IMG/VR virus record: IMGVR_UViG_3300047561_001900
Coordinates: 7,822 to 71,821 of that record
Strand: one strand, 5' to 3'
Length of the DNA stretch: 64,000 nt
From: a virus
Lineage: Duplodnaviria; Caudoviricetes
Below, piece by piece: positions 7,596 to 48,479 of the stretch. Under the pieces are notes generated by a model. It had not been told where the DNA came from. It made no database searches and was given only the letters and a program-made list of their open reading frames with translations. Every line of letters starts with the position of its first letter. The stretch's first letter is position 1. The translations under genes were made by a program, and so were the position numbers.

Positions 7596-7750
7596 TGGGC
7601 TGGGCTGCTCGTAAATTGTGTGGCAGTGATTGGGAGGATCAACATCAAGTGGTTACAGAGTATCTGGCAGCCAAGGATGCAGCTAAGATATTGCTAGACA
7701 AACAGTTAAAAGAGTTCTGGGCAGAGTATGAAGATGAACGAGGAGCATAA
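7595..7750 (+). CDS. 51-aa hypothetical protein (not in ORF track)
   Basis: MGWAARKLCGSDWEDQHQVVTEYLAAKDAAKILLDKQLKEFWAEYEDERGA; TGATG overlap. Confidence 0.55.
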   Translation: MGWAARKLCGSDWEDQHQVVTEYLAAKDAAKILLDKQLKEFWAEYEDERGA

Positions 7751-7751
7751 C

Positions 7752-7871
7752 ATGGACTGGCAGCATATGAAAGACAGATGCTGGTCATTCTTTTACTCCG
7801 TGCTGGCCAATGTGTTAGCGTTGATATTGTACAGCGCCATTGCTTATGCATTCATATGGTTCATTTGGTAG
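7752..7871 (+). CDS. 39-aa membrane peptide (not in ORF track)
   Basis: MDWQHMKDRCWSFFYSVLANVLALILYSAIAYAFIWFIW; AGGAG upstream. Confidence 0.55.
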   Translation: MDWQHMKDRCWSFFYSVLANVLALILYSAIAYAFIWFIW

Positions 7872-7899
7872 TTGACCCAACTGCAAACGCCTGTACAAT
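7872..7899 (+). promoter_or_regulatory. Early promoter
   Basis: TTGACC-N16-TACAAT-N6-ATGATG(7906). Confidence 0.8.
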
Positions 7900-7905
7900 A
7901 TTAGT

Positions 7906-8229
7906 ATGATGAATAACAACACCACCAAACAAGTCGGCAACGTCACCATTCACAGCAACCCCTGGGTCACTTTTGCATTTGAAGTGCATGGTACCATGTT
8001 CAAGATCAATGAAGGGGTGGACATCATTGATCCCAAGACTGGACTCAAGTCTGTGCAGGGCACCATTGACTACATCTGTGACTCAGGGTTCTCTGCTCGC
8101 ATTCTGGGACCATTTGGTTCAGGATCACCTTTTCAGAGCTTTGATGCAGCTGCCACATTTGGTAGTGCTGCAGATGATCATGCCTCATGGAAGCAGTGCC
8201 ACCGCAGCTGTGCTGTGGGATTGATCTAA
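7906..8229 (+). CDS. Early hypothetical protein
   Basis: 107 aa. Confidence 0.7.
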   Translation: MMNNNTTKQVGNVTIHSNPWVTFAFEVHGTMFKINEGVDIIDPKTGLKSVQGTIDYICDSGFSARILGPFGSGSPFQSFDAAATFGSAADDHASWKQCHRSCAVGLI

Positions 8230-18348: not shown

Positions 18349-20817
18349 ATGAAAACAACAAACATAATAAAGAAGGCATTGAGCTTGATTGCCGCTGCTT
18401 TCATGACAACCGCAGCCAACAATGCCCAAGCAGTAGTATTCCTATGGAACAACAGCGGCTCAAACTGGACATCACCCACCAGCTGGACCAATGGCATACA
18501 ACCATCATCCACCAGTTCCAGCACCACCACAGATGAAATTCAGTTTGGTAATGTTGGAGTGAGTAATAATACAGTCATACTCACTTCTACTAGAGCTGCA
18601 AGAAACATCACATTCCTAACTAATGCGAATGCATATGCAATCAACAGCTTCAATGGTGCACAAACTGTATCATCTAGTGGAGGTATTACAAATAACTCCA
18701 CTGCTACTCAAACATTTAATATATTAGTAGAAAATGCTAACGCCAGCAACACTTGGTATCAAACTGCAGGTGGTGCATTATTATTCAATAATGTGGCTTC
18801 ACTCACCACTGCTTCTTCTGCCACATCCAGAACTTTAACTCTGGCAGGAGATGGTGCATTCACATTCAACAATGAATTGAAACAAGGCGGTACATCCACA
18901 GCAGGCATAGTCAAATACATTGGAGCAGGCACTGTCACAATGAATGGCACCAACACACTGGGTGGTGGTTTTGAAATAACAGGAGGAGGCACAGTTGTTG
19001 TGAATGGGGGCACTGGTGTGGGTCAAGGCTTAATAACCATGTCAAATGGCACTTCAAAACTAGTAGTCAATTCAGCTAACGGGTTATCTGTTCAGAATAG
19101 TTTCAAAGGGTCCAGCAGTCTAGCCAACATGAGCACTGTGGATCTGGCTGGGTCTAATTCTGTTGCTGTTACCACTTATGCTATTAACCAATATCAAGGC
19201 GGTAACATGAACTTCACCAATCATGGTGGATACAAAACACTGTTACAGTTTACTAATGCTGCTAATACATTAACTCCATCTTCAGGTTCAGGTGGAGGCA
19301 GAAGATTGTTCAACAACAGCACCAATTTAACTGTGCAGTTTGATGGTACCATGGACATTGGAGGCACAGTTGCAGATACAAGTCTTGTGGGTGGTGTGGG
19401 TGATTTTCTGTTCAAAGGATCTGTGTTCAATACAGCTACTGCACTCAGAGGATTGACCAAGTCAGGCACAGGCACAGCCACCTTTCAAGCAGTCAATGCT
19501 TACAATGGTGACACCACCATACAAGAGGGTACATTTGTAGTGGATACTGCTGGTTCCATTGCTTCCAGTGCTGCCATAATATCAGGGGGCACTTTGCGTG
19601 TCAAAGGCACAGCTGGCACAGTGGCTGCTAACAGTGGAAGCTTGATAGTGGACAGCACAGGCACCATTGGCAACACTTCCATTGGGGTGAGTACCACAGT
19701 AACCATGGATGGCACAGCAGGCACCATAACACAAGGTGGAGGCACTTTGAACTTGAGAGGAACTGGCAGCACATTCTCCATGTCTGCAGGCACTGCCACA
19801 GTGTACAGTGGAGCATTTCTGGGTGCTTCCACTCTCACAGGAGGCAGCTTGCTTAACAGTGGCACAGTTGGGGAGACAACCATTGCCACAGGCAGCACAT
19901 TTGATGTGAAGACAGGGGGTACTGCTTCCAAGGCCACTGTGAATGGAGGCACTTTGATTGTGGGAGGATCTGTGGGGCAAACTGTTGTAAACTCTGGCAC
20001 AGCCACCATCAATTCCGGTGGCAATGCAGGCACAACAACTATCAATGGCAGCACATTGGATGTGTATGGAAACACTGGTGTATCCACTGTTAACACAGGA
20101 GGCACACTCAATGTGAAAACTGGTGGCAGTCTGTTAGGCGCTGCCACTGTGGGTGGAGGCACATTGTTGGTGAGTGGAACTGCTGGTAGAGTCATAATCA
20201 ATTCTGGCACTGCCACTGTTAATACAGGTGGTGCCATTGACAGTACCACTGTGAATGGTGGTCTGTTGTCTGTGAATGGCACTGCAGGTGATATTTTAGT
20301 TAAAACTGGAGGCACTTTGGGTGGCTCTGGTAGTGTGCAAGGACTCACACTCAATGGTGGTACTGTGGCCCCAGGCAACAGCCCGGGTCTGCTCACTGCC
20401 TATGAGTTAAATGGCAGCAATGGAACATTTGCTTTCCAATTGGGAGCCCCCACTACCAGAGGAGTCACTTATGATGGCATTGATGTGACCACATTGCTCA
20501 CTCTGGGCACCAGCACTGCATTCACATTTGAAACTTTGGACAGTTACACATATGCCATGGGAGACGTTTATGACTTGTTCAATTTTGCATCCATAGAAGC
20601 ATCTGCATTTGATAGTGCAGTGCTATTGGCTGCTCTGCCTGACTTGAACACTGCCAGTTCTGACTTGAAGTGGAATGTGAGCAACTTCACCATGGATGGC
20701 ACAGTGGGTGTCATTCCTGAGCCCTCCACTGCATCACTGTTGTTAGGGGGAGGTGCCAGTTTGATTGCTCTCAGAGTCATGAGGAGAAACAAATGCAAAC
20801 ACCAAGCACACTCTTAA
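18349..20817 (+). CDS. Large PEP-CTERM protein with autotransporter-associated beta-strand repeats
   Basis: GLTKSGTGT...YNGDTTIQEGT repeat, G/T-rich beta-helix, VAPGNSPG; C-term VIPEPSTASLLLGGGASLIALRVMRRNK. Confidence 0.9.
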   Translation: MKTTNIIKKALSLIAAAFMTTAANNAQAVVFLWNNSGSNWTSPTSWTNGIQPSSTSSSTTTDEIQFGNVGVSNNTVILTSTRAARNITFLTNANAYAINSFNGAQTVSSSGGITNNSTATQTFNILVENANASNTWYQTAGGALLFNNVASLTTASSATSRTLTLAGDGAFTFNNELKQGGTSTAGIVKYIGAGTVTMNGTNTLGGGFEITGGGTVVVNGGTGVGQGLITMSNGTSKLVVNSANGLSVQNSFKGSSSLANMSTVDLAGSNSVAVTTYAINQYQGGNMNFTNHGGYKTLLQFTNAANTLTPSSGSGGGRRLFNNSTNLTVQFDGTMDIGGTVADTSLVGGVGDFLFKGSVFNTATALRGLTKSGTGTATFQAVNAYNGDTTIQEGTFVVDTAGSIASSAAIISGGTLRVKGTAGTVAANSGSLIVDSTGTIGNTSIGVSTTVTMDGTAGTITQGGGTLNLRGTGSTFSMSAGTATVYSGAFLGASTLTGGSLLNSGTVGETTIATGSTFDVKTGGTASKATVNGGTLIVGGSVGQTVVNSGTATINSGGNAGTTTINGSTLDVYGNTGVSTVNTGGTLNVKTGGSLLGAATVGGGTLLVSGTAGRVIINSGTATVNTGGAIDSTTVNGGLLSVNGTAGDILVKTGGTLGGSGSVQGLTLNGGTVAPGNSPGLLTAYELNGSNGTFAFQLGAPTTRGVTYDGIDVTTLLTLGTSTAFTFETLDSYTYAMGDVYDLFNFASIEASAFDSAVLLAALPDLNTASSDLKWNVSNFTMDGTVGVIPEPSTASLLLGGGASLIALRVMRRNKCKHQAHS

Positions 20818-21452
20818 AGCATTTAAAACCATTGATGTGCCAAGGCTTCACATTAGTTGAAATGGCTGTGGTCATAGTTATAATGGGATTATTGATGACC
20901 ATTTTATTTCCAGGATATGCAGCTGTTAAGCGCAAGTCATCTCAAGCTGCTTGTGCATCCAACATGAAGCAAGTAGGCACATCAATTGTGTTGTTTGCAG
21001 CAGATAATGATGGTTGGCTTCCACCTGGACCTAGCGGTCAGACAATCAATTCGTTCATTAGTGATTCCAGATTTGGAGCTAATACATCCAATGTTGTAGA
21101 CACATCTAATCTGGAATATTATCTTACAAATTATATCACCACTACATCTCTAGGTAAAAAGAGAAAAGGCAATCCAGTTTTTTCATGCCCGGCTCATGAT
21201 GAAAAGCGACCTTTGATTTGGAAGAGAGGATCTTGTTTTGGTGGATCAGGCGGGCAATATGGTACACAAAATTCTGAAAAACTAATTGCAGTAGATACAA
21301 ATGATTATTTTCTGGTTGACTTCACTAAAGCTTTTACCAATCATTCTACTGCATCTTTAGATCGGACAATTAAAAATCCACATGGAGCAACCAGAAACCT
21401 GCTAAGAACAGATGGCAGTGTGACCACAGAACTGGATACAAAGGCCAGGTAA
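20793..21452 (+). CDS. Prepilin-type N-terminal cleavage/methylation protein with H-X9-DG motif (DUF1559-like)
   Basis: G|FTLVEMAVVIVIMGLL, CASNMKQVG, C-terminal H-GATRNLLRT-DG. Confidence 0.9.
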   Translation: MQTPSTLLKHLKPLMCQGFTLVEMAVVIVIMGLLMTILFPGYAAVKRKSSQAACASNMKQVGTSIVLFAADNDGWLPPGPSGQTINSFISDSRFGANTSNVVDTSNLEYYLTNYITTTSLGKKRKGNPVFSCPAHDEKRPLIWKRGSCFGGSGGQYGTQNSEKLIAVDTNDYFLVDFTKAFTNHSTASLDRTIKNPHGATRNLLRTDGSVTTELDTKAR

Positions 21453-29816: not shown

Positions 29817-29840
29817 GCTTGATCTTACCGACATTGCATT

Positions 29841-29848
29841 TATAAATA
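29841..29848 (+). promoter_or_regulatory. Perfect T4 late promoter TATAAATA upstream of tmRNA
   Basis: Exact T4 late consensus 38 nt before the tmRNA 5' end. Confidence 0.65.
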
Positions 29849-29886
29849 GATGGTAAGGTGTTACCTTATATTGTTCTTTAACAACT

Positions 29887-30292
29887 GGGGCTGTAATGGT
29901 TTCGATTGAATGGTGGAGCTTATGAGTGCAAGTACTGGGGCATGCCAGTATAAAATAGCAACAAACCTTAAATGCCGAAGACAACTTCGACATGGCTATG
30001 AGTCTCGAAGAGGCTGATGCAATTCTTGCTCAGCACAACTTTGTTGACGCAGAAGCTGAATTCGAACTAGTTTAGTTCGATCGTTCTACTGTAGATTAAA
30101 GCTTGTAAAGTAGAGCGTGTTACTGGCTTTCGTATAAATTGGGTTTTAACAGTTAATAGTTTATATGTATAAAATTGTTATGAATAAGGGCGTTTCGTTT
30201 AGTTCAATCCTTATGAAATTATAACTAAAATAAACTTGTAGTGCTTATGAATGAATCCATTCAAGACGAGAGTTCAATTCTCTCCAGCTCCA
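29887..30292 (+). ncRNA. ssrA: tmRNA (transfer-messenger RNA)
   Basis: 5' GGGGCTGTAATGGTTTCGA; 3' GACGAGAGTTCAATTCTCTCCAGCTCCA T-arm; acceptor GGGGCTG/CAGCTCC with G3:U; helix 2 TTGAATGG/CCATTCAA; resume context TAAAT-GCC at 29974; tag stop in hairpin TCGAACTA-GTT-TAGTTCGA; CCA not encoded. Confidence 0.93.
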
Positions 30293-30330
30293 GGCACTTG
30301 AAAATTTAATGTTGTCACTATACTTAATAG

Positions 30331-30933
30331 GTGGACATAACATATTATTGCTTACACCACCCAGTCCTACGAGATCGCAGACAAAATATGCAATTGCAGC
30401 TGGACAAGCTAAATCTGGCTGTTGAGTGGGTTTGTGCTTTTCTTCCTGAGGAAATTGAATTGCCTTCAACTGCCAAATTTAAGAATAAAAATGAATACTC
30501 TCTATATTTGAAACAGCAATACTGCATTGAACAACAAGTACAAAAAGAAATTCCGTTAATTGTTATACTAGAGGATGATGTGTTATTGCCGGATAATTTT
30601 TGTGACTTTGTTGACAACTGTGTATCAGAGTTTACTTTGTTGAAGGGTGATCTATTATTTCTTGGAACATGTTGCAATATAACTGCTCGTAATATTCAAT
30701 CAGACAGAAGTGTTTATTATGAACCTGATTATAAGAGCAGATGTGCACACTGCTATGCAGTTACTCTATCAGCAGCCAGAACCATTATGAAGCATATCGA
30801 TAACCGGCAATGCGCTTATGATTTTAAATTGAACCAAATTATTGCACAAGAAGCTCTTCGAGTATGCTATGCTGAGCCAGGCATACTACAAGCAACAGAA
30901 CAAAGATTAATAAAATCCTCACTGCAACTATGA
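30331..30933 (+). CDS. Glycosyltransferase family 25
   Basis: IVILEDDV, AHCYAVTLSAARTI. Confidence 0.8.
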   Translation: MDITYYCLHHPVLRDRRQNMQLQLDKLNLAVEWVCAFLPEEIELPSTAKFKNKNEYSLYLKQQYCIEQQVQKEIPLIVILEDDVLLPDNFCDFVDNCVSEFTLLKGDLLFLGTCCNITARNIQSDRSVYYEPDYKSRCAHCYAVTLSAARTIMKHIDNRQCAYDFKLNQIIAQEALRVCYAEPGILQATEQRLIKSSLQL

Positions 30934-31817
30934 CTACTTTAAAAATTTACTTTGAAGACATGTGGGGATATGATATGTACCAGTTCAATCCACATGACAA
31001 TTATTTTACAAATCTGTTTAAACAGGAATATAATGTAGTTATTGATCCGGACCCAGACATTTTAATATATTCAGTATTTGGCTCTAATAACACACGGTAC
31101 AATTGTAAGAAAATCTTTTTTTGTGGAGAAAATATAGGACACAATTTTAAACACCCAACAGACCAGCAATGTGATGCTTCACTCTCTCAATTTGCAGATG
31201 ATGGTAAAAATATATATTTTCCTCTATGGTGTATATTTGTTAACTGGTTTAATGAGCAGCAACCAAGACCTCTTCCATCAAACCCCACATTTCACACAAA
31301 CATACAAGATCTAATATCACCCTCTCTATATCCTAAAACTAAATTTTGTGCCTTCATTAATAACAACCCCATTGAGAATCGCATGAAAGTATTTGAGTTA
31401 TTATCCAAATATAAAAAGGTTGATAGTTATGGTAATCTTTTTAATAATGTGGATACTGTGTTAAGAGGATCAGAACAAGCGAAGATCAATGTTCTCAAGG
31501 ATTATAAATTCACTATTGCTTTTGAAAATTCCTGTCACCCTGGATATAATACAGAAAAAATTATTCAACCACTTTCAGTCAATTGCATACCCCTGTACTG
31601 GGGAGGAGATCATATTAAAAAGTATTTTAATATGAGTAAAGTGGTCTTTGCAGACAATTTTACCAGTTTCGAGTACATGGTGGAAGCTGTTATTAATATG
31701 GATAAAGATAATACAGTATATAATTATATCCAGACACTATCAGGTGTACAAGATGCATTTTTTGACTTCGCCCCACATAAAATTCTCTCGAGAATAAAAA
31801 CAGCTTTACACCTATGA
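30930..31817 (+). CDS. Alpha-1,3-fucosyltransferase-like (GT10)
   Basis: KTKFCAF, YKFTIAFENS...GYNTEKI, CIPLYWG. Confidence 0.85.
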   Translation: MTTLKIYFEDMWGYDMYQFNPHDNYFTNLFKQEYNVVIDPDPDILIYSVFGSNNTRYNCKKIFFCGENIGHNFKHPTDQQCDASLSQFADDGKNIYFPLWCIFVNWFNEQQPRPLPSNPTFHTNIQDLISPSLYPKTKFCAFINNNPIENRMKVFELLSKYKKVDSYGNLFNNVDTVLRGSEQAKINVLKDYKFTIAFENSCHPGYNTEKIIQPLSVNCIPLYWGGDHIKKYFNMSKVVFADNFTSFEYMVEAVINMDKDNTVYNYIQTLSGVQDAFFDFAPHKILSRIKTALHL

Positions 31818-32557
31818 AAACGGCAATCATGAAGCAACCGGCTGGTATTGGAGATATTTTATTCTGCCAAAAAATTGCAACAATGTTGCAACAAAAATAC
31901 AATGTTGTGTGGCCAATAATACCGCAGTATTTGGGTATTAAACCTTATCTGCCTCACATTAATTTTGTAGATGTTAATTCAAATTTTGAACACAGAGACT
32001 TTTATTCTAGTTGTCCAAAAGGTCAAATCATTGAAAACGACAATTGTATCATAATTGGCACAGATGGTACTCTTATAGGTGACTCTGGTGTGATGGTTTC
32101 AAAATACAAACTGGTTGGCATAGATCATACTGATTGGGTAGATTACATCAAGTTAAATCGTAATCCTATTAAAGAAGACGAATTGTTTTATAAGACCTTA
32201 CAACTCAAGGATGGTGAAGAATATATTATAATAAATGATACAACTGGGTCACTTGGACATGAAAGTGAAACAAAATGGGTCATTCCTCATCCCACAGATA
32301 GAAGAGTAATTAAACTGCAACTATTTGATGGCTTTGAAATATTTGATTGGTGCAAGGTGTTTGAAAGATGTTCAGAATTTCATATCATTGATACAAGCAT
32401 TTCGTACATAATTGAAAAAATTAATACTACAGAGAAGGTATACAAAATGTATCATCGATCCAATTCGGATGATAAAGATTTTAAAGACTTTACAAAGCTA
32501 CACAAAAAGCCACAAAGCCATGGAGGCCGAGAAACCCTTCAACCACCTATTGCATAA
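31814..32557 (+). CDS. Putative glycosyltransferase (GT-B-like)
   Basis: QPAGIGDILF N-terminal motif, IDTS motif; island context. Confidence 0.55.
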   Translation: MKTAIMKQPAGIGDILFCQKIATMLQQKYNVVWPIIPQYLGIKPYLPHINFVDVNSNFEHRDFYSSCPKGQIIENDNCIIIGTDGTLIGDSGVMVSKYKLVGIDHTDWVDYIKLNRNPIKEDELFYKTLQLKDGEEYIIINDTTGSLGHESETKWVIPHPTDRRVIKLQLFDGFEIFDWCKVFERCSEFHIIDTSISYIIEKINTTEKVYKMYHRSNSDDKDFKDFTKLHKKPQSHGGRETLQPPIA

Positions 32558-32581
32558 CTGAGTGATATTCTTAAATTATAC

Positions 32582-34120
32582 ATGGGACATATTAGTTTCT
32601 TTGATTTAAACGCTCTCAGGGAAACATTCAAAGCAGATGTTTTCGTAGAAACAGGAACGTATTTAGGTGATTCCTTAGCACACGCTGCAAAAGCAGATTT
32701 TAAGAAATTATATTCCATAGAAATTGCTCCAGATCTGGTAGCTAAAGCTCGTGAACGGTTCAAAGATGATCCACGCATTGAGATCATAGAAGGTTCATCC
32801 TCTGAAGTGTTGGAGCCTCTGTTAAACCGCACCAAAGAAAACATTGTGTTATGGCTTGATGCACACTTCTCTGGCTGTTATACAGATTATAATGGTGATC
32901 AAAACAAAGATAGCCGTGCACCACTTGAAGCAGAGATTCTTGCTCTGCAGAGAAGATTGGGCAAATATGCAGATGTTATTCTTATTGATGATTTGCGCTG
33001 CTATGAAGATAATATACCTGGCGTCACATCTTTTAATGATCACATGCGAAACATAGGGCAACCTCATGTCACACGTGAACAAGTGATTGGCACCGATTCT
33101 AAATTTATTTACGATGCATTCAATGCAACACATGAAATTACAAAACACCCCACGCACGAAGGATATCTGTCATTGATACCCAAACAAAATTTTATTGATT
33201 CATTCGATAAGGTGGTGTTCTTCAATCATGGTCATCTAGGCGATACTTTAATTGCAAAAATTTTTATTAGAGAGTTGATAAAGCAGTTTTCCACCAAAAA
33301 AACCGCAATTGCGAACAACTATAACATTCATTACATAAAAGACATAGTTGACGAGCATATTAATATAAACAGTATACCCATTGGTCGAGGTGATATTGAA
33401 AGGTCCATAGAGTTTAAGCTAGTGGACCGTATACTATACATTAACACATGGTTTGCTCCTCCTTGTGTGCAACCGTCTGATGCTGCAGAGGGTAACAGAT
33501 TTACAAGTGACATTCGGGATAGAGATGGTGTTGTATATAACTACGATTTGCATTTAAAATGCTTTGAACAAATTATTCACAACATTAATGATACCCACAA
33601 TACAAGTTTTGATTTGAGCCATATGTGGAAAAATAAAAACGAATATTTGCTAGAACTGTATAATGAAGATCTCGACACAAGCATAATACCTTTTATAAAT
33701 GATTTAAATTATAAAAAGATTCTTATTTTTAATCAAACAGCTACATCTGGTCAATCAGATAACGCTAACTTTTCACCTTTTATTGATGAACTAAAAAACA
33801 ATGAGCATGTTGTAATATATACTAGTCAGCCTAGTGTTATCAGACATCCCAGAGTTATAAATCTGCGAGATTATTATGGGGAGCCAGATCTGTTTAAAAC
33901 TGCTAGAGTTAGTATGAATTGTGACATTATTTGTGGCCCTAGTAATGCAACCATAATATCTACTTGGATTAAACCAAACCTCATGAACAATAAGATGCAC
34001 TACATTGTTATTAACTGTAACAATGCAGGTGAGGCAACATTGTTTAAAGACTTAGCATGCAAGACCACAGTTGTGAGTACAACCCATGCTTTATTCAACA
34101 AAATAAAGGAAATAATATAA
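32582..34120 (+). CDS. Class I SAM methyltransferase-like domain fused to GT-like domain
   Basis: VFVETGTYLGDS, WLDAH, LIDD; C-terminal half starts HGHLGDTL. Confidence 0.65.
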   Translation: MGHISFFDLNALRETFKADVFVETGTYLGDSLAHAAKADFKKLYSIEIAPDLVAKARERFKDDPRIEIIEGSSSEVLEPLLNRTKENIVLWLDAHFSGCYTDYNGDQNKDSRAPLEAEILALQRRLGKYADVILIDDLRCYEDNIPGVTSFNDHMRNIGQPHVTREQVIGTDSKFIYDAFNATHEITKHPTHEGYLSLIPKQNFIDSFDKVVFFNHGHLGDTLIAKIFIRELIKQFSTKKTAIANNYNIHYIKDIVDEHININSIPIGRGDIERSIEFKLVDRILYINTWFAPPCVQPSDAAEGNRFTSDIRDRDGVVYNYDLHLKCFEQIIHNINDTHNTSFDLSHMWKNKNEYLLELYNEDLDTSIIPFINDLNYKKILIFNQTATSGQSDNANFSPFIDELKNNEHVVIYTSQPSVIRHPRVINLRDYYGEPDLFKTARVSMNCDIICGPSNATIISTWIKPNLMNNKMHYIVINCNNAGEATLFKDLACKTTVVSTTHALFNKIKEII

Positions 34121-34380
34121 TGGCAAATTTATATAGCATAGCTGAGCTAATTGACAAGCTTATAATTGAGAACATTAAAATCTTCACTAGCAGGGAGAAG
34201 ATACATAACAAGTCTATATCTGATGAAGAATACGTTCAAAATGAAAATAAGATGAATGTATTAAACGAAAATAGAGGCATTATTATACGGTTTCTTGACG
34301 AAAAGATTATCAATGTGATAAATGAAACTGAACAAAATACCCATGTCAAAAATGTCAAAACCTACTATAATTCCAAATAA
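34120..34380 (+). CDS. Small helical hypothetical protein
   Basis: MANLYSIAELIDKLIIENIKIF; TAATG coupling. Confidence 0.65.
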   Translation: MANLYSIAELIDKLIIENIKIFTSREKIHNKSISDEEYVQNENKMNVLNENRGIIIRFLDEKIINVINETEQNTHVKNVKTYYNSK

Positions 34381-34567
34381 AGCGATTGAATTGATAACAG
34401 AGTTAACAGAGCTTTGGATCACTTGGATGCAGAATCACAACATATCGAACAATATCAGGATACCCTTGGAAGATCGCAGAGCTGGAGGTGAAAGATGTGA
34501 ATGCCTGCAGCGCCGTCGTCAAGAGATTCTCATTGAACTAAATGAAGAGTTTAACGCAATTTTATGA
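34322..34567 (+). CDS. Small hypothetical protein (start uncertain)
   Basis: 81 aa filling the gap before rmlD; overlaps previous ORF. Confidence 0.5.
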   Translation: MKLNKIPMSKMSKPTIIPNKAIELITELTELWITWMQNHNISNNIRIPLEDRRAGGERCECLQRRRQEILIELNEEFNAIL

Positions 34568-35451
34568 GCTATAAGATTTGGATTATTGGTTGCGGTGGCA
34601 TGCTAGGCAAGGCATTTTACAATAATTTTTCCAGCACATGTTCTATAGATGCTTATGATATAGATGTAAACGAAAAATGGCTAAAATATGGCGATATTAC
34701 AGATTATAATTTTTGTAGCAAAAGTATAGAGGTCTTTAACCCAGATATAGTAGTTAATTTTGCTGCACTCACAGATCTAGAATACTGTGAAGCTCATAAA
34801 GATCAGACATACAGTACAAATGCTCTTGGAGCCGACATTGTTACGCATGTGGCCAGGAAATTGAACAAACCTCTTATCCACATCTCGACTGCAGGTATTT
34901 TTGATGGCAAACAAGACACCTACACAGAATATGATACCCCTGTGCCACTCAGCGTGTATGGCAAGAGTAAGCTTGAAGGCGAGAAAGCTGTGCTGAGATA
35001 TAAGAATGCATACATCTTTCGAGCTGGATGGATGATGGGCAGCTTGCAGAAAGATAAAAAATTTATTAAAAAGATATACAATCAGATTCTTGAAGGCAAA
35101 AAAGAAATTTTCGCTGTTACTGACAAATTAGGCACCCCGACTTACACTAATGAATTCTCGTTAAACATCATACGGTACGCACAATCTGGATTATTACCTG
35201 GGTTGTACCACCTGGTGTGTGGTGGCGATTGCAGTCGTTTTGATGTGGCAAAGCACTTCTGTAATCTTGTTGATCCAAGTATCACTGTGACACCCACAAC
35301 ATCAGATTACTTTAGTAAGGAATATTTTGCTGTGCGCCCATATTCTGAAGCATTGATAAATTTTAAACTTAACTCGTTGAAGCAAAATTATATGCGCAAT
35401 TGGAAGGACTGTCTTGATGATTATACGAAAGACTTACTAGCTGTTAAGTAA
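34564..35451 (+). CDS. rmlD: dTDP-4-dehydrorhamnose reductase-like SDR
   Basis: IIGCGGMLG, NFAALTDLEYCE, HIST..IFDG, YGKSKLEGE, GTPTY. Confidence 0.85.
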   Translation: MSYKIWIIGCGGMLGKAFYNNFSSTCSIDAYDIDVNEKWLKYGDITDYNFCSKSIEVFNPDIVVNFAALTDLEYCEAHKDQTYSTNALGADIVTHVARKLNKPLIHISTAGIFDGKQDTYTEYDTPVPLSVYGKSKLEGEKAVLRYKNAYIFRAGWMMGSLQKDKKFIKKIYNQILEGKKEIFAVTDKLGTPTYTNEFSLNIIRYAQSGLLPGLYHLVCGGDCSRFDVAKHFCNLVDPSITVTPTTSDYFSKEYFAVRPYSEALINFKLNSLKQNYMRNWKDCLDDYTKDLLAVK

Positions 35452-36216
35452 TAAATTTTTATAAAAGATAAAATCTGCTAACTCTGTACTCTTCGCAATT
35501 GTTTTGTCATAATTATCTTGTAAAAAAGTTTCCGTTACCTGCAACCAGTCATTGACGAAAAGTATTGGACAATTCTTAAAGTACACCATCGGCAGACTCT
35601 TAAGGCAAATGGGAACTGTCTTGACATAGATAGATTCCCAAACCCTATGACAGTCAATGCTATTACCTGGAGGTGAAATTACATATTTGTAGCTACTAAG
35701 CTTCTCGATATAGTCTTCAAATGAGTGCAAATTAAAATCAAAATCAATAAAATTATAATCTTTTAATACTTTGAGTGCTTGCATACGCTCAGCAGCATTG
35801 GTTTCAATCTTATAATTACAATACACCAATTTAGTTTTAGGTGTATTTTTTCTGAGCACACGCACAAGAGCATCTATATTACCATGTGGCCATTCTGCGT
35901 TTGCTAATCCAATTGGTATTGCTTGAATCTTTTCATGCAATATATGCACATTCATTCCATACCATTTCTTAAGAAATGGGTTATTTAAAATAGGCTCATA
36001 GTTACCTGGTACTTGATAATCTGATTCGTGTGTAATGAGAGTGAATGGGTAATAGATTTTTGGTAATATATTGCTAGCAAAAAACTCCAAAAAATCTGTT
36101 TTAACAAAGAATATATTTTTCTCTGGCGTAATATCAATGTGGGTTTTTTTCTTTGATATGTAATTTGTTGATAATTCCAAGAATTTATCTGAAGTAATAA
36201 TATTTGCATTATTCAT
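35437..36216 (-). CDS. Exostosin-like (GT47) glycosyltransferase
   Basis: AIPIGL, YVISPPGNSIDCHRVWESIY. Confidence 0.7.
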   Translation of the reverse strand: MNNANIITSDKFLELSTNYISKKKTHIDITPEKNIFFVKTDFLEFFASNILPKIYYPFTLITHESDYQVPGNYEPILNNPFLKKWYGMNVHILHEKIQAIPIGLANAEWPHGNIDALVRVLRKNTPKTKLVYCNYKIETNAAERMQALKVLKDYNFIDFDFNLHSFEDYIEKLSSYKYVISPPGNSIDCHRVWESIYVKTVPICLKSLPMVYFKNCPILFVNDWLQVTETFLQDNYDKTIAKSTELADFIFYKNLLLNS

Positions 36217-37144
36217 GGAGAAACTTTTCTATAATTTTTTTGTTATGCAAATGTAAATTATACAAAGGAATCTGTTTACCTTCATAGATAACAAATGGCT
36301 TTTTATCAAAAATAACCTCAATCTGTTTTGAGATGAGCTGTTGGCCTATATAGTGTGCTGGTTCAGTATAGCCTTGTGGGTGACCATTATTAGTCCCCCC
36401 TAGGAATTGACCATATGAGGCGGGATCAAACAACATATTAAACTTGTCAAAATTTTGTGATTGCTCTCCAAAAGGCAAGCTTGGTAACAATCGAAAATAC
36501 TTCTTACTTCTAGCAATAACGTCAATAAAATTCATATCTGTGATGTAATCAAAATGGACACCGGTGGCCTGTTTTATAGCAATTTCACCCTTGATGAGCA
36601 GCTTCACAATTCTGTTAATAAAATTATTACCCGCTTTACTGTCTCTAAAATATAAGATTCCTGGTGCAGCAACAAGTGGTGAAACAACACTATAGCCGAA
36701 CTCACCCTCTTCAAATACAGAATTAAATTGTGTAAGGTTATCAGAGTAAACAAGATTATCAGCTTCTAGGTGTACCACATTCTCGAGATTACTCTTTTCT
36801 ACAAAAATACCTAAAATTATTAAACGCATGAATGCATGATAAAGAAAAACCTCATTCTTGTAACGTGGCCATAAAGATTCTAACAACTGCAATATCACTT
36901 TAAACTCATCTGTACAGAGGACACTGTCTTCAATGGAAATGAGATTGATGTTTGACGGTATACGAGTCTTAATTTTATCAATCTCAGCCTGCTGCAATAA
37001 AAAATAACTAGCGCTAAAGTTCTTTGAATTATACTCTATAGTTTTAAGGTAATAATCAGGGAGACAGGCATAACTATAGGTCTTTTTATCGCTTGCGTTG
37101 CCATTGAATTCACTGTTAAGAAAGACGTATACTAGATTACTCAT
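36209..37144 (-). CDS. Putative glycosyltransferase
   Basis: HLEADNLVY (DxD-like), FDPASYGQFLGG, NLHLH; island context. Confidence 0.55.
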   Translation of the reverse strand: MSNLVYVFLNSEFNGNASDKKTYSYACLPDYYLKTIEYNSKNFSASYFLLQQAEIDKIKTRIPSNINLISIEDSVLCTDEFKVILQLLESLWPRYKNEVFLYHAFMRLIILGIFVEKSNLENVVHLEADNLVYSDNLTQFNSVFEEGEFGYSVVSPLVAAPGILYFRDSKAGNNFINRIVKLLIKGEIAIKQATGVHFDYITDMNFIDVIARSKKYFRLLPSLPFGEQSQNFDKFNMLFDPASYGQFLGGTNNGHPQGYTEPAHYIGQQLISKQIEVIFDKKPFVIYEGKQIPLYNLHLHNKKIIEKFLHE

Positions 37145-37923
37145 AGTAGTGCAATATCATTATCATACTTCTTAAGTGCATCACCACATGCAGCAAGAAC
37201 ACCACGGTGATGCATGAATAACTGACCATACTCTGACTTATCATTTATCAAGTAGTTTCCCCATTGAGAAGGCTCTCGAGACACAGGCAATTTGTGCTTT
37301 ATGGCCATTAATGATAGAATAGACTGATCATGCCGATGTTGTCGGAACGCTGGGTAGTCCTCACCTAGTACGCTTGGCTCATCTGTAATAATAGTACCTG
37401 TCTCACACCATGCGAGATACTCATTAAAGAACTGAACAGAAAATTTATTCTTCTGTATTAAAACATATGACCCATCTATTTGATTACCATTAATATACTC
37501 TTCAGTATTACACTGCATTGTTTCAAAGCAATCGAACTTTGTCCACATATCATTTTTCCATATTGTACCCTCAGGGCAACCATCTCTGTTATCAAAAAAT
37601 AAAACACCACGACTATCACGGGTGCAAATATTAAATAAAGGGGTTATATCACCTGTGATCAGATTACCACTATCTACATAAAATAAAAAATCACCATCTG
37701 AAAGCATTGAGAGTGTCTTCTGTATAATGTAAGGTTTCCACAACCAATATCCACCACCCCGGGGAAGATCAAAAATATGTTTGTTTTTCTTTTTAAACTC
37801 CTCATCAATTAATTCTGGTGTATAAGAAGCATGTGCATTAAAAAATTGCTTTGACGATGCTACCAGATATTGTTGGCACAAATAATAATTGGGAGTAGCG
37901 TAGCTTACAAGTACTTTCTTCAT
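37141..37923 (-). CDS. Putative glycosyltransferase (GT-A-like)
   Basis: GYWLWKPYII, FYVDSG, HRHDQSILSL. Confidence 0.7.
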   Translation of the reverse strand: MKKVLVSYATPNYYLCQQYLVASSKQFFNAHASYTPELIDEEFKKKNKHIFDLPRGGGYWLWKPYIIQKTLSMLSDGDFLFYVDSGNLITGDITPLFNICTRDSRGVLFFDNRDGCPEGTIWKNDMWTKFDCFETMQCNTEEYINGNQIDGSYVLIQKNKFSVQFFNEYLAWCETGTIITDEPSVLGEDYPAFRQHRHDQSILSLMAIKHKLPVSREPSQWGNYLINDKSEYGQLFMHHRGVLAACGDALKKYDNDIALL

Positions 37924-37980
37924 GTTATAATTTTATTATGTGTTCATTGGATTTCAACAGACTATATCTTAATATACTAT

Positions 37981-38847
37981 ATGAATTTTAACGTTTTAGG
38001 GTTCTTAGACGGAGCTGTTGAAATTTTGGAGAAATTCAAGGGTAAAGAACCATGTTGTGTAGGCAAAATTGGTAATGCAGAATTAATGTGTGCTTATAAC
38101 TACTTCCACGCAAAGCATCACAATCAAAATCCAATTGTCTGGAGCCCAACCATTGAACGTGAGATCTATATTAATGCAGGTGTATTTCCCCAAACGGAGG
38201 AGGCGAGAATTTATTTTGCAGAACAGCTCTCTGATGCTGTTGCTAATACGGACATAATATCTCCCTGGAATGGAGGATTAGGTGATTTTGAGCTTCGTTT
38301 TATTAGAAGTCGTAACCCCAATAGCGTGTTAGTTGATCTACAATCTCTTGAGCCTTTTTATAGTGGGATTCCTTGGAGTAGCACTCTCGAAGACAAGACT
38401 GTTCTAGTAATAAGTCCGTTTGTTGAAACTATTAAGAAGCAATATGTGCAACGACAAAATATATGGGCTAATTCCAGAGTTCTGCCAAAGTTTGACTTAA
38501 AAACAATCTACCACCCAACCAGCAAAGCAATTTCCGGTAGTAAGAACAAGTACAGTACTTGGAAGGAAATGGTGGATGATATTAAGCAGCAAATGTCTAA
38601 TATTGAATTTGATGTGGCATTAATTGGTACTGGTGCGTCATCTTTGCCGCTAACATCATTTGCCAAGCAAATTAATAAACAAGCTATTCACTTAGGTGGC
38701 TCCTTACAGCTTATGTTTGGCATCAAGGGCAAGAGATGGGAGCAAATGAAAATATTTAACCATTTCTATAATGACTATTGGACTAGACCGTCTGCAGAAG
38801 AAACCCCTGAAGGTTATAAGCTTGTTGAAGATGGTACCTATTGGTAA
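37981..38847 (+). CDS. Putative glycosyltransferase-associated protein (GT-D-like)
   Basis: FDVALIGTGA, AIHLGGSLQLMFGIKGKRW; start refined to MNFNVL. Confidence 0.6.
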   Translation: MNFNVLGFLDGAVEILEKFKGKEPCCVGKIGNAELMCAYNYFHAKHHNQNPIVWSPTIEREIYINAGVFPQTEEARIYFAEQLSDAVANTDIISPWNGGLGDFELRFIRSRNPNSVLVDLQSLEPFYSGIPWSSTLEDKTVLVISPFVETIKKQYVQRQNIWANSRVLPKFDLKTIYHPTSKAISGSKNKYSTWKEMVDDIKQQMSNIEFDVALIGTGASSLPLTSFAKQINKQAIHLGGSLQLMFGIKGKRWEQMKIFNHFYNDYWTRPSAEETPEGYKLVEDGTYW

Positions 38848-38850
38848 TTG

Positions 38851-39714
38851 TTATTGTGTTTTGCCACTTCTAAACGCTGCATAAGACCAATAGTTTGATT
38901 TAAAATAATTGTCATTAAAATACTTTCTCTCCAACTCAACTTCATTCTCATGTGGTTGCCAGTAGTTAATACCTGGTCGCACAAGCAACACATTAAACAG
39001 ATAATTATGCCACATATCCACATCAAAAGTATGTGGCTGCCAGTATGTTTTATTATTAAATTGTGTCAAAACATCTTCATATTGATCGCCACCTTGGCCG
39101 TGCTTAATGTGAAATGTGGGAGCTGGCCAATCATTGCAAAGTCTTGACTGACCAAATCTCAAGCAAAGCGTGGCATAATGCACATCCCAACACGGGTGAC
39201 CAAGAATATATGTGGGAAATTTATCTGAATTTTCTTTCCACCATTCTGTCCTGATACAAAAAGTATCAAACCCTGCCACCTGGTAATGATCAGCAGTTAT
39301 TGAATCTGTCAGAGTAGAAATTGGTTCTATGGCAAGCCTGCTTGCAGGATAACAATCATAATTAGTTTCAAGAAAAAACTTTATGTACCGGTCTGATATG
39401 ATGATATCATCATTAGTGAAACAAAAATAATCGTAGTTTAGATCTGCTAATTTATCAAAAACCTCCTTCATCATAGGAATTGTTCTTGGTGTGCCTTGTA
39501 TATAATTATGATTTGATTCTGTCAATACCCGCAATGTTTTTATGTCAGGATGCTCTCGCCCCTTTATACTTTCATCAACAAATTGTATGTTATACAGGTC
39601 TATAACATCAGGAAACTTCTTTTTCAGCGCAACCAGAGACTGTATGCACAAGTCTGTACGTACAGATTTACCAAACAAGTTAACACCAAGGGCTATTTTT
39701 TTATTCTGTGGCAT
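38851..39714 (-). CDS. Putative glycosyltransferase (GT-A-like)
   Basis: CFTNDDII DxD-like motif; island context. Confidence 0.6.
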   Translation of the reverse strand: MPQNKKIALGVNLFGKSVRTDLCIQSLVALKKKFPDVIDLYNIQFVDESIKGREHPDIKTLRVLTESNHNYIQGTPRTIPMMKEVFDKLADLNYDYFCFTNDDIIISDRYIKFFLETNYDCYPASRLAIEPISTLTDSITADHYQVAGFDTFCIRTEWWKENSDKFPTYILGHPCWDVHYATLCLRFGQSRLCNDWPAPTFHIKHGQGGDQYEDVLTQFNNKTYWQPHTFDVDMWHNYLFNVLLVRPGINYWQPHENEVELERKYFNDNYFKSNYWSYAAFRSGKTQ

Positions 39715-39728
39715 AAAACTCCAGATAA

Positions 39729-40538
39729 TTAATCTCGTTTAGCGTGAAAACGTTGTATATCTTTTAGTACCCTGTTCACTTTCTTATCATCCATGTCAGG
39801 TACACAGCCTTGCCAAGCTGGCAGATAACCGTGCTTTTGTTTAAAGAGCATGGCACCTTGCTCAATATTCTGTCTCCAATCATCTCTGGGTCTAATTGCA
39901 CTACTCGTTTCCGAACATTCTATTTCATCAAGATACTCTGTACTATTGGATATGTCTGGAAAATGCCAATATGGTGCACCCATGCCAGCTTTAAAAACTC
40001 TGTAGTCATGGTCTACATGTTCAAAGGCGTTGGTATAATCTTCATCAATATAACCAACCTTTTCAATAACTTGCTTACTGTAATAACAAAATGCCCCTAC
40101 ACTATGTCTGTTAAAAGCTATCTTAATTTCCCCATAATCAACCACATAACGAGGTTTTGGCGGACCACCAGAAACTCCATCCTTATTTGCAGGACCATGG
40201 TAACCAAAATTAAAATGCTGAATACCAGTTATATCTTTTGCCCTGATGTATTCTTCAAAGACTTCTTCTTTCTTTATTATTATATCATCTTCAATTAAGA
40301 ATAAATCTGTACAACCTTTTTCAACAAGATACCTTAATGCTTTATTCTTAGATTTACCCACACCCACATTGATCTCATTATGAATGTAGTGAAACGGTCT
40401 TTCCTTTAATAATTTAGCCCAATCTTCAAAGTTAGAACCATCATTTACAACGACCAATTCTACATTCTTAGGTATTGTTCTAAAACATTTTACAAAGAAA
40501 TGCGGCCTATTGCATGTTATTATTCCTGCACCAATCAC
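39729..40538 (-). CDS. Glycosyltransferase family 2
   Basis: GIITCNR, VVVNDGS, FLIEDD, GYIDEDY..FEHVD. Confidence 0.85.
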   Translation of the reverse strand: MIGAGIITCNRPHFFVKCFRTIPKNVELVVVNDGSNFEDWAKLLKERPFHYIHNEINVGVGKSKNKALRYLVEKGCTDLFLIEDDIIIKKEEVFEEYIRAKDITGIQHFNFGYHGPANKDGVSGGPPKPRYVVDYGEIKIAFNRHSVGAFCYYSKQVIEKVGYIDEDYTNAFEHVDHDYRVFKAGMGAPYWHFPDISNSTEYLDEIECSETSSAIRPRDDWRQNIEQGAMLFKQKHGYLPAWQGCVPDMDDKKVNRVLKDIQRFHAKRD

Positions 40539-40601
40539 AACAATATTTTAAATAAAAATACTTGTATTGCAACTGCGTTATATCATATAAATAAAGGATA
40601 T

Positions 40602-41426
40602 ATGCCAACATTTAATAATGTTAATATCAAGGAGCTAAATCAAGTTGAAGAGATAGTTAATGGTGATTATCTCATAACTGAGACAGAGAACGGTACAAAT
40701 ATAATTGATTTTAGAAATTTCGTCGTTGGACCTAACAATGTTAGCTTTTACACTGCTTTTGCTACACTCAGCACTCAAGTGGTATCATTAAGTGCAGATC
40801 TAGGTACCAAGCCCTCCGGATTTACTGCAGCATTAGTTTATAATAGTGGCACCGGCACAGTAGCCATACCTTCAGGTGTTAAGAATCTGAGGGTAACTGT
40901 TGTTGGTGGTGGTGGTGGCGGTGGGGCAGCAACCAGCACTGCAGGTTCAGCAGGGGCAGGTGGCGGCTCTGGTAGTGTAGCAATAAAGTACTTTACCAAC
41001 GTGTCTGGTTCATTCACATACACTGTTGGAGCAGGTGGTGGTTCGAATGCCAGTGGCAATGCTTCTACTATGGTAGTTGGTTCAACAACTGTTACTGGGA
41101 ATGGCGGCAGTGCTGGTACTGCAGGCAGTGCATCTGCTAGCACAATAGTTGCAGGTGGTGCTGGTGGTACCACAGGTACAAATGGTGATTATAATGCTGT
41201 TGGCTCAGCTGGTGGGAATGGCATAGGCGGTGCTGGTACTGCTTCATCAAGTGGCGGTAACGGAGCTCAAGGGTATTTGGGCATGGGCGGCGGCCGAGGT
41301 GGCGTAGGAAGTGGTGGAGCAGGTGCAAACGGTGCTACAGGCACTGGTGCAGGCGGTGGTGGCGGCAGTGGTGCTTCTGGAGCTGGTGGAACTGGTGGAA
41401 GCGGTGTAGTTATAGTTGAATATTAA
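40602..41426 (+). CDS. Glycine-rich tail-fibre-like protein
   Basis: TATAAATA at 40586; VVGGGGGGG...GAGGGSG glycine-rich domain ending GGSGVVIVEY. Confidence 0.7.
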   Translation: MPTFNNVNIKELNQVEEIVNGDYLITETENGTNIIDFRNFVVGPNNVSFYTAFATLSTQVVSLSADLGTKPSGFTAALVYNSGTGTVAIPSGVKNLRVTVVGGGGGGGAATSTAGSAGAGGGSGSVAIKYFTNVSGSFTYTVGAGGGSNASGNASTMVVGSTTVTGNGGSAGTAGSASASTIVAGGAGGTTGTNGDYNAVGSAGGNGIGGAGTASSSGGNGAQGYLGMGGGRGGVGSGGAGANGATGTGAGGGGGSGASGAGGTGGSGVVIVEY

Positions 41427-48062: not shown

Positions 48063-48479
48063 CTAAGAGCTGAGGTTGTTGTTGATATTGACATTGACAA
48101 CACCACCATTTTGTTGAATAAAATCCTTGCAAAGCAAAACAGGATTGTCTTGATTGGTTCTGTCAGCAAGACTGAAGGGAGTTTTGTTGAATTGCTCTTT
48201 GCCTATGCTGCAATCCAACTCAACAACAACTCTATCATTGATGTTATTGTTGCCTGAAACTGTGATATTATCTTTGATGGGAAGCTCTAGTACTTTGTCG
48301 CCAACAGTTTTAAATTTTACATGACCAGGTTTAGCATCTTTTAATACTATTGCATGCAATACATTATACCCATTATTGCCTGTGTCCACAGTAGCTCGTA
48401 CATTTCCAACATGTTGAATAGTAATGCCTTCTGTTGAACCAAGTATTTGCTCATAAAAAAATTCTTTAAAACTGCGCAT
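48063..48479 (-). CDS. Retropepsin-like (RimK-associated type) putative protease with capsid-targeting-like N-terminus
   Basis: ATVDTGN, FSLADR...PVLLCKDF; N-term MRSFKEFFYE. Confidence 0.75.
   Translation of the reverse strand: MRSFKEFFYEQILGSTEGITIQHVGNVRATVDTGNNGYNVLHAIVLKDAKPGHVKFKTVGDKVLELPIKDNITVSGNNNINDRVVVELDCSIGKEQFNKTPFSLADRTNQDNPVLLCKDFIQQNGGVVNVNINNNLSS

Follow-up and report, generated by a model that had tools for sequence, protein, structure and literature searches.

A one-piece tmRNA gene predicted to encode a 33-residue acidic tag in a family of uncultured freshwater T4-like phages

The window analyzed here (the whole stretch of DNA under study, 64,000 nt, positions 7,822 to 71,821 of IMG/VR virus record IMGVR_UViG_3300047561_001900) contains a one-piece tmRNA gene that is the sole tmRNA of the entire 71.8-kb virus record. 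A first-pass annotation, made from the sequence alone, had described a complete tmRNA at 29887-30292 and proposed that ARAGORN and Infernal (RF00023) be run on it. Both programs recovered the gene. The Rfam model RF00023 matched at 29887-30293 over model positions 1-374 with 93.8 bits against a gathering score of 47 (E 3e-35), which is a full-length match to the covariance model, above the curated threshold and far outside chance expectation. ARAGORN reported nothing in the window at its default settings; with a relaxed threshold (-ps) it called 29887-30292, together with the tRNA-like domain and an identical 33-residue tag that is absent from the program's list of known tags. The acceptor strands, T-arm, the helix formed by TTGAATGG and CCATTCAA, and the resume context TAAAT|GCC at 29974 were all found at the positions that had been given for them, as was TATAAATA 38 nt upstream. 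The 3′ CCA is not encoded, and GGC directly follows the discriminator base. The features of the gene are as follows.

29887..30292 (+): one-piece tmRNA gene (ssrA), from RF00023 and ARAGORN -ps
29887..29913 (+): 5′ half of the tRNA-like domain, with acceptor strand GGGGCTG and helix strand TTGAATGG, from the ARAGORN bracket output
29887-29893 and 30285-30291 (+): acceptor strands GGGGCTG and CAGCTCC, a 7-bp stem with G3:U70; discriminator A at 30292
29969..29973 (+): resume context TAAAT; relative to the resume codon, U is at -5 and A at -4; the G of GCC is 29974
29974..30075 (+): tag reading frame, 33 codons from GCC followed by TAG (30073-30075), from ARAGORN -ps and the relatives
30062..30080 (+): helix 5 hairpin containing the stop codon, a perfect 8-bp stem TCGAACTA-GTT-TAGTTCGA with loop GTT
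30257..30292 (+): 3′ half of the tRNA-like domain, with CCATTCAA, T-arm (30268-30284), acceptor strand and discriminator A

To the left of the tmRNA the window encodes a GH108 lysin (26.5 kb), a 5′-3′ exonuclease and UvdE; to the right, past a glycosyltransferase island, are a helicase, SbcD/SbcC-like nuclease subunits and PolB (54.6-64 kb). The best matches of the family-B DNA polymerase were to cyanomyovirus gp43, with about 30% identity. The window's own T4-like evidence consists of these replication genes, the capsid gene falling outside it. Pattern scans of IMG/VR yielded related tmRNAs on 28 further viral contigs. Two tmRNA-bearing relatives, of 217,413 and 229,717 bases, were rated 100% complete by CheckV, and all family records tested encode a T4 Gp23-type capsid protein (PF07068; E 1e-88 to 1e-94). 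A Gp23 gene was present on nine tmRNA-bearing records, five of them from this family and four from other T4-like phages; CheckV rated four of the nine 100% and one 98% complete. A blastn search with the tmRNA found no match among 50,697 deposited phage genomes, and the family is therefore known only from metagenomes. One candidate from the scans, L008, was discarded as a chance match to the tag-start pattern.

We considered whether the gene could instead be a host ssrA on a chimeric or prophage-edge contig. Prophages classically attach at ssrA, IMG/VR labels the record of one relative "provirus", and the gene marks a drop in G+C, from about 0.43 to about 0.35. Nonetheless, phage genes flank the tmRNA on both sides, the same tmRNA lies inside the CheckV-complete 217-kb and 230-kb T4-like genomes that also carry Gp23, the tag-core pattern occurs in none of 185,579 species genomes, and in relatives the tmRNA sits in a phage tRNA cluster. 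A host origin is so improbable on these grounds as to be nearly negligible. As the first-pass annotation had held, the gene is phage-encoded: it belongs to an uncultured freshwater T4-like phage and is not a prophage edge.

A consensus fold of 20 sequences contained compensatory changes in 30 of its 85 predicted pairs, including pairs of the T-stem (GC/CG, AU/UA/CG and GC/AU), of the long helix joining both halves and of several helices in the pseudoknot region. These 30 compensated pairs show the whole tmRNA to be under structural selection. The acceptor stem likewise changes pairwise among relatives (GGGGGCG/CGCCTCC, GGGGGTG/CACCTCC, GGGCCAG/CTGGTCC), with G3:U kept. RF00023 aligns through the PK1-PK4 regions with low posterior probability; RNAalifold cannot draw pseudoknots, and the covarying helices at columns 203-238, 268-301 and 319-350 refer to the pseudoknot region as a whole. 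The perfect 8-bp hairpin in which the TAG had been said to lie was confirmed, with TAG at 30073-30075 forming the start of its 3′ arm. This hairpin has a predicted energy of -8.7 kcal/mol (z -1.8 taken alone) and covaries, TCGAAC/GTTCGA being replaced by TCGAGC/GCTCGA in relatives (columns 179-183 / 197-201). None of the pairs that RNAalifold drew within the tag region showed a two-sided change. A terminator was looked for 3′ of the tmRNA gene and none was found.

The 33-residue acidic frame of the first-pass annotation was the one returned by ARAGORN -ps; its peptide has a net charge of about -10 and ends in ELV. In E. coli, A86 sets the frame and the resume codon lies four bases downstream (PMC2481249). 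The bases AAAT before the resume codon were invariant in all 20 aligned sequences and the T at -5 was kept in at least 90%, so that the choice of frame fits the A86 rule. Every family member has a 33-codon frame ending in ELV, save one with 34 codons that ends in ELVY; neither is a ClpX-type end (..LAA, ..VAA or ..MAA). The stop codon itself differs among relatives (TAA, TAG or TGA). Among 22 distinct coding sequences, variable sites at codon positions 1, 2 and 3 numbered 11, 8 and 21, respectively. The third-position excess was carried by codons 1-25 (6/6/16, p 0.008) and by codons 1-19 within them (3/2/11, p 0.004), and was absent from codons 26-33 (5/2/5). Variation was synonymous only at eleven codons, and pairwise dN/dS averaged about 0.18. 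The constant frame length, the third-position excess and the low dN/dS suggest that the long tag is translated and selected. These patterns show the frame to evolve like coding sequence in about 28 related phages, where it is kept as a peptide in its own right.

Resumption at the in-frame GCA at window position 30049, 25 codons downstream, would give a far shorter tag of 8 residues that also ends in ELV, and this was the resume codon preferred by ARAGORN in three relatives (L002, L004 and L019). However, the base at -4 of the GCA site varies among relatives (T, A or G; T in the window) while the upstream AAAT|GCC is invariant, the coding-type variation in codons 1-19 lies wholly within the segment that a short tag would omit, and the Rfam alignment sets the consensus resume codon on GCC 29974. 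We therefore regard the short tag as highly unlikely and retain the 33-residue frame. The three relatives are part of a wider difficulty with this family. In batch runs with -ps, ARAGORN missed the tmRNA of 5 among the first 18 relatives; at default settings it returned none in L166, L174, L175 and L180; and in other relatives the tmRNA was called "permuted" or given a wrong resume codon. Since ARAGORN at its default is the standard finder in common phage annotation pipelines and either overlooks the family or reads its tag wrongly, too few genes of this kind are likely to be reported.

Among the 19 distinct peptides of the family, 20 of the 33 residues are invariant, including F5 to L11, A14 to A19 and the E-L-V end. 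What is kept comprises the segment F5-A19, the ELV end and a short helix around SLEEADAIL. The last eight codons coincide in part with the 5′ arm of the covarying helix 5, and the constancy of ELV is therefore in part an RNA constraint. Given the alignment of the 19 peptides, AlphaFold2 predicted a single helix at residues 11-20 (mean pLDDT 67). An amphipathic helix was rejected, as hydrophobic moments were low (0.04-0.33) and the AlphaFold2 helix was of only moderate confidence.

Two elements lie between the preceding sequence and the 5′ end of the tmRNA.

29819..29848 (+): promoter-like element, TTGATC (29819-29824), a 16-nt spacer and TATAAA (29841-29846)
29852..29865 (+): leader hairpin GGTAA-GGTG-TTACC, downstream of the promoter-like element and ahead of the tmRNA 5′ end

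The sequence TATAAATA, at 29841-29848, overlaps TATAAA and ends 38 nt before the gene. It had been taken for a late promoter, a claim that found no support. In the window TATAAATA occurs 4 times against 4.3 expected, and of 24 relatives just 6 have it in the 160 nt before the tmRNA, while 18 do not. The chance-level count, the poor conservation upstream, and the overlap with a -35/-10 pair in which TATAAATA doubles as a sigma70-type -10 all speak against a T4-type late promoter. In about half of the relatives a sequence scoring 10-11 of 12 against TTGACA-16/17-TATAAT lies about 22 bases before the tmRNA or before a preceding tRNA-Met, and promoters of the TTGACT-16-TATAAT type occur at the same side of the tmRNA. 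Transcription by the host polymerase, early or constitutive, thus seems at least as likely as late transcription; early, host-polymerase transcription has likewise been suggested for the phage Melnitz tmRNA (PMC9004378). In L003, the closest relative, the place of the window's leader hairpin is taken by one of another sequence (TAAAGC-AA-GCTTTA, upstream of 173).

Seven relatives carry a tRNA-Met(CAT) gene 11-13 bases ahead of the tmRNA, in the same orientation and within a phage tRNA cluster.

L004:4489-4565: tRNA-Met(CAT), upstream of the tmRNA
L005:4454-4529: tRNA-Met(CAT), upstream of the tmRNA
L010:10823-10899: tRNA-Met(CAT), upstream of the tmRNA
L016:6921-6996 (-): tRNA-Met(CAT), upstream of the tmRNA
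L017:10765-10840 (-): tRNA-Met(CAT), upstream of the tmRNA
L018:8286-8358 (-): tRNA-Met(CAT), upstream of the tmRNA
L019:7591-7665: tRNA-Met(CAT), upstream of the tmRNA

With the sigma70-type promoter in front, tRNA-Met and tmRNA look like a single tRNA-tmRNA transcription unit in these seven phages. The window has no tRNA gene at all and hence lacks the tRNA-Met. On the related 158-kb phage contig L010, a group I intron (RF00028, 70.9 bits) was also found at 7675-7911 (-), about 3 kb from the tmRNA.

Four lake-water metatranscriptome studies yielded contigs that match the gene. They lie wholly within 29895-30290, are 245-357 nt long and differ from the window at 2-4 positions, and their loose ends carry variants known from relatives; contigs of this kind cannot give RNA ends, strand or level, nor do they prove transcription. 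The 1-kb flanks on either side of the gene gave no contig from four RNA runs, an absence of cover that carries no weight. The contigs are at most a weak hint that the tmRNA is present as a discrete, abundant RNA molecule.

A DNA pattern for the tag core, with the phage codon variants allowed, matched 18 viral contigs and none of 185,579 species genomes, which speaks against a tag borrowed from bacteria. A second scan, for the tag head AEDN[F/Y] at its usual distance downstream of a standard tRNA-like 5′ end, returned at least 120 bacterial loci (in Clostridia, Syntrophomonadaceae, Acidimicrobiia, Acidobacteriota and others), with no PVC genome among the matches listed. Of the matches listed, 101 were called as tmRNAs by ARAGORN; all 101 had tags of 9-16 residues ending in Ala-Ala, and in 78 the tag was AEDNFALAA. 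The first five residues of the phage tag, AEDNF, are the head of this tag, which bears out the earlier remark that it starts like a normal one. The phage tag thus opens as a very common bacterial tag does and diverges afterwards. When the tag was searched without a profile against 1.84 billion proteins, it matched only three short ORFs, which had been called over such tmRNA genes; the tag was therefore not borrowed from a protein, and that origin was rejected.

Compared with the canonical bacterial one-piece tmRNA (SsrA of the Clostridium/Acidimicrobiia type, with tag AEDNFALAA), the phage molecule shares the alanine acceptor with G3:U, the T-arm, the A at -4, the helix 5 stop, a full-length RF00023 match and the first five tag residues. 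It differs in having a tag of 33 rather than 9-16 residues, with a charge of about -10 and a Glu-Leu-Val instead of a Leu-Ala-Ala end, in being encoded by a T4-like phage of lytic type, with no adjacent smpB, and in falling under the default threshold of ARAGORN. Of the earlier claim that the tag lacks the "LAA" degron, the observation stands in that there is no Ala-Ala end. To say that it lacks a degron is too strong, because Val-ending ssrA variants (AAV, ASV) are still degraded in E. coli, as Andersen et al. reportedly found in 1998.

Phages with a tmRNA of their own have been described before. About 2% of sequenced phages carry one (PMC9004378), huge phages have a tmRNA and sometimes SmpB too (PMC7162821), and the tmRNA Website lists mycobacteriophage cases (PMC4131195). 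Five published phage tmRNAs were read with the same tools as the window.

Bxz1: tag of 25 residues, end LV, acidic; RF00023 73.9 bits
Wildcat: tag of 22 residues, end VAA, acidic
Enterococcus phage EFDG1: tag of 10 residues, end VA
Bacillus phage G: tag of 13 residues, end VA
Cellulophaga phage phi14:2: tag of 11 residues, end VA; tmRNA 46 bits, just below the Rfam cut-off of 47

The first-pass annotation had presented the gene as a phage rewiring trans-translation rather than copying it. As something new in kind this does not hold, given the 25-residue acidic LV tag of Bxz1 and four other non-LAA phage tags. Phage tags that do not end in LAA, and phage tags that are long and acidic, had thus been recorded before, although to our knowledge they have never been explained. 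Bxz1 offers the closest parallel in form. Its tag, like that of the window, is long, strongly acidic, ends in Leu-Val and is unlike its host's; the Bxz1 tmRNA was reportedly described by Pedulla et al. in 2003. Bxz1 and other cluster C1 mycobacteriophages (listed in PMC4131195) likewise have a one-piece tmRNA in a large myovirus. The Bxz1 and window tags have no detectable sequence relationship (z 0.9 versus shuffles), and lineage and host phylum differ. As the resemblance is restricted to composition and end, it appears to be convergent or coincidental. The Wildcat tag has no similarity to that of the window beyond composition (z -0.1).

T4-like pelagimyophages, cyanomyophages and the Methylophilales phage Melnitz have two-piece tmRNAs (Buchholz et al., 2022, PMC9004378). 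Like the present family, these are T4-like aquatic phages with an ssrA of their own near tRNA genes, and in Melnitz the gene is also just downstream of an early promoter. Their tmRNAs are, however, circularly permuted two-piece forms of alphaproteobacterial or cyanobacterial type, whereas that of the window is a standard one-piece form; one of the two-piece phage tmRNAs carries a glutamine riboswitch. Unrelated one-piece tmRNAs were also observed in other T4-like viral records (L169:6391-6755, L170:6903-7267, L179:5018-5382, L171-L173 and L176-L178), of which three are jumbo genomes of 363-424 kb (CheckV 98-100% complete) and the rest contigs of 6.6-137 kb. Their tags have either 8 residues (ANTYAMAA) or 27-31 residues with an Ala-Ala end. 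The 27-31-residue tags of the jumbo phages resemble the window tag weakly (z 2.1 and 4.0 versus shuffles) and share an ..AEL(E/Q).. end motif with its family, which hints that the long tag architecture may be older than the loss of the Ala-Ala end.

Searches for SmpB, ClpP and Lon genes came up empty for this record, for the two complete relatives and for several partial ones. Without a phage SmpB the RNA must use that of the host, and the reader of the tag, if it is a protease, is the host's. Under the reading that we favor, host RNA polymerase would transcribe the tmRNA from the sigma70-type promoter, jointly with tRNA-Met in many relatives, and the transcript would be matured by host RNase P and the host CCA-adding enzyme. 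Host AlaRS would charge it through the G3:U identity pair, and it would enter stalled ribosomes with host SmpB. Translation would then resume at GCC 29974, four bases past the conserved A, append the 33-residue acidic peptide and stop at the TAG in helix 5, upon which the ribosome would be freed. The phage would in this way gain rescue capacity during infection, and we infer that the rescued products might meet a fate unlike that of host-tagged ones.

The absence of SmpB is also what would be expected if the RNA mainly titrated host SmpB or blocked host trans-translation, with tagging being irrelevant. The tmRNA of mycobacteriophage DS6A is little more than its tRNA-like part, and molecules of that kind are inhibitors of tmRNA (PMC4131195). 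A sponge of this sort, however, would not need a kept frame, resume context, stop hairpin or pseudoknot helices; frame, context and hairpin are kept in this family and several helices of the pseudoknot region covary, and we consider the idea very doubtful. The conservation of F5-A19, of the ELV end and of the SLEEADAIL helix argues that something reads the tag. Our best guess is a host factor other than the plain ClpX LAA pocket, which could be another protease, an adaptor, or ClpX with altered kinetics. Taken as a whole, the comparisons make it probable that this is a working tmRNA of a T4-like phage, with a selected 33-residue tag.

The Leu-Val C-terminus may still be accepted by ClpXP, Tsp or FtsH. 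The tag might be an ordinary degradation tag, with its LV end read by ClpXP or another protease that recognizes C-terminal tails, and with its length either tolerated or tuning the binding of an adaptor. Its AEDNF head is that of the commonest bacterial tag among the matches listed, its tail is non-polar as in nearly all tags, the weakly similar 27-31-residue tags of the T4-like jumbo phages still end in AA, and there are the Val-ending ssrA variants mentioned above. Against this, residues 5-19 are kept in the 22 coding variants while codons drift, which a mere spacer would not require, and Glu stands third from last, where canonical tags have Leu or Ala. We regard ordinary degradation as possible but rather unlikely. 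Long ssrA tags of Mycoplasma are reported to have switched from ClpXP to Lon (Gur and Sauer, 2008), a precedent for a long non-LAA tag that can send tagged proteins to another protease; that case differs in being bacterial, in concerning organisms without ClpXP and in having a tag that is not acidic.

Tentatively, and with no greater confidence, the tag could be a phage-specific address label rather than a degron, in which the SLEEADAIL helical motif and the ELV end would be recognized by a dedicated host or phage partner. If so, proteins truncated during infection would be routed in a way that benefits the phage, e.g., sequestered, spared or recycled on the phage's schedule, and Bxz1 and other unrelated phages would have arrived at their similar tags by convergence, in answer to one need. 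The tag is kept as a peptide in about 28 phages and is unlike every sampled bacterial tag, which suggests that the phage selects for ribosome release plus what is attached. The significance is limited by the fact that phage tmRNAs and odd phage tags were already known; the family does offer a concrete handle, namely one 33-residue peptide for fusion, pull-down and assay.

Several further observations were made in the window. A prepilin-like protein with an H-X9-DG end is encoded at 20793-21452 (+). Its 73 homologues with at least 69% identity all come from metagenome contigs, which probably belong to the same phage clade, and the next match is at 37%; the two NCBI matches are short contigs of whole-metagenome assemblies. 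The gene thus appears to be a fixed one of the phage clade and not a recent pick-up from a host. The nearest ESM Atlas clusters are from Planctomycetota, Armatimonadota and Lentisphaerota, which is a lead only, and a PVC host is no more than hinted at. A small ORF at 48063-48479 (-) has a weak match to RloA3 (retropepsin-like aspartic peptidase, NCBIfam NF052264; E 6e-9), far under the cut-off. Directly after the tmRNA, at 30331-41426, is a run of glycosyltransferase-type genes (GT25, GT10 fucosyltransferase, GT-D-like and RXYLT1-like) with an RmlD-like reductase, in which G+C is 0.34-0.38 compared with about 0.43 to the left.
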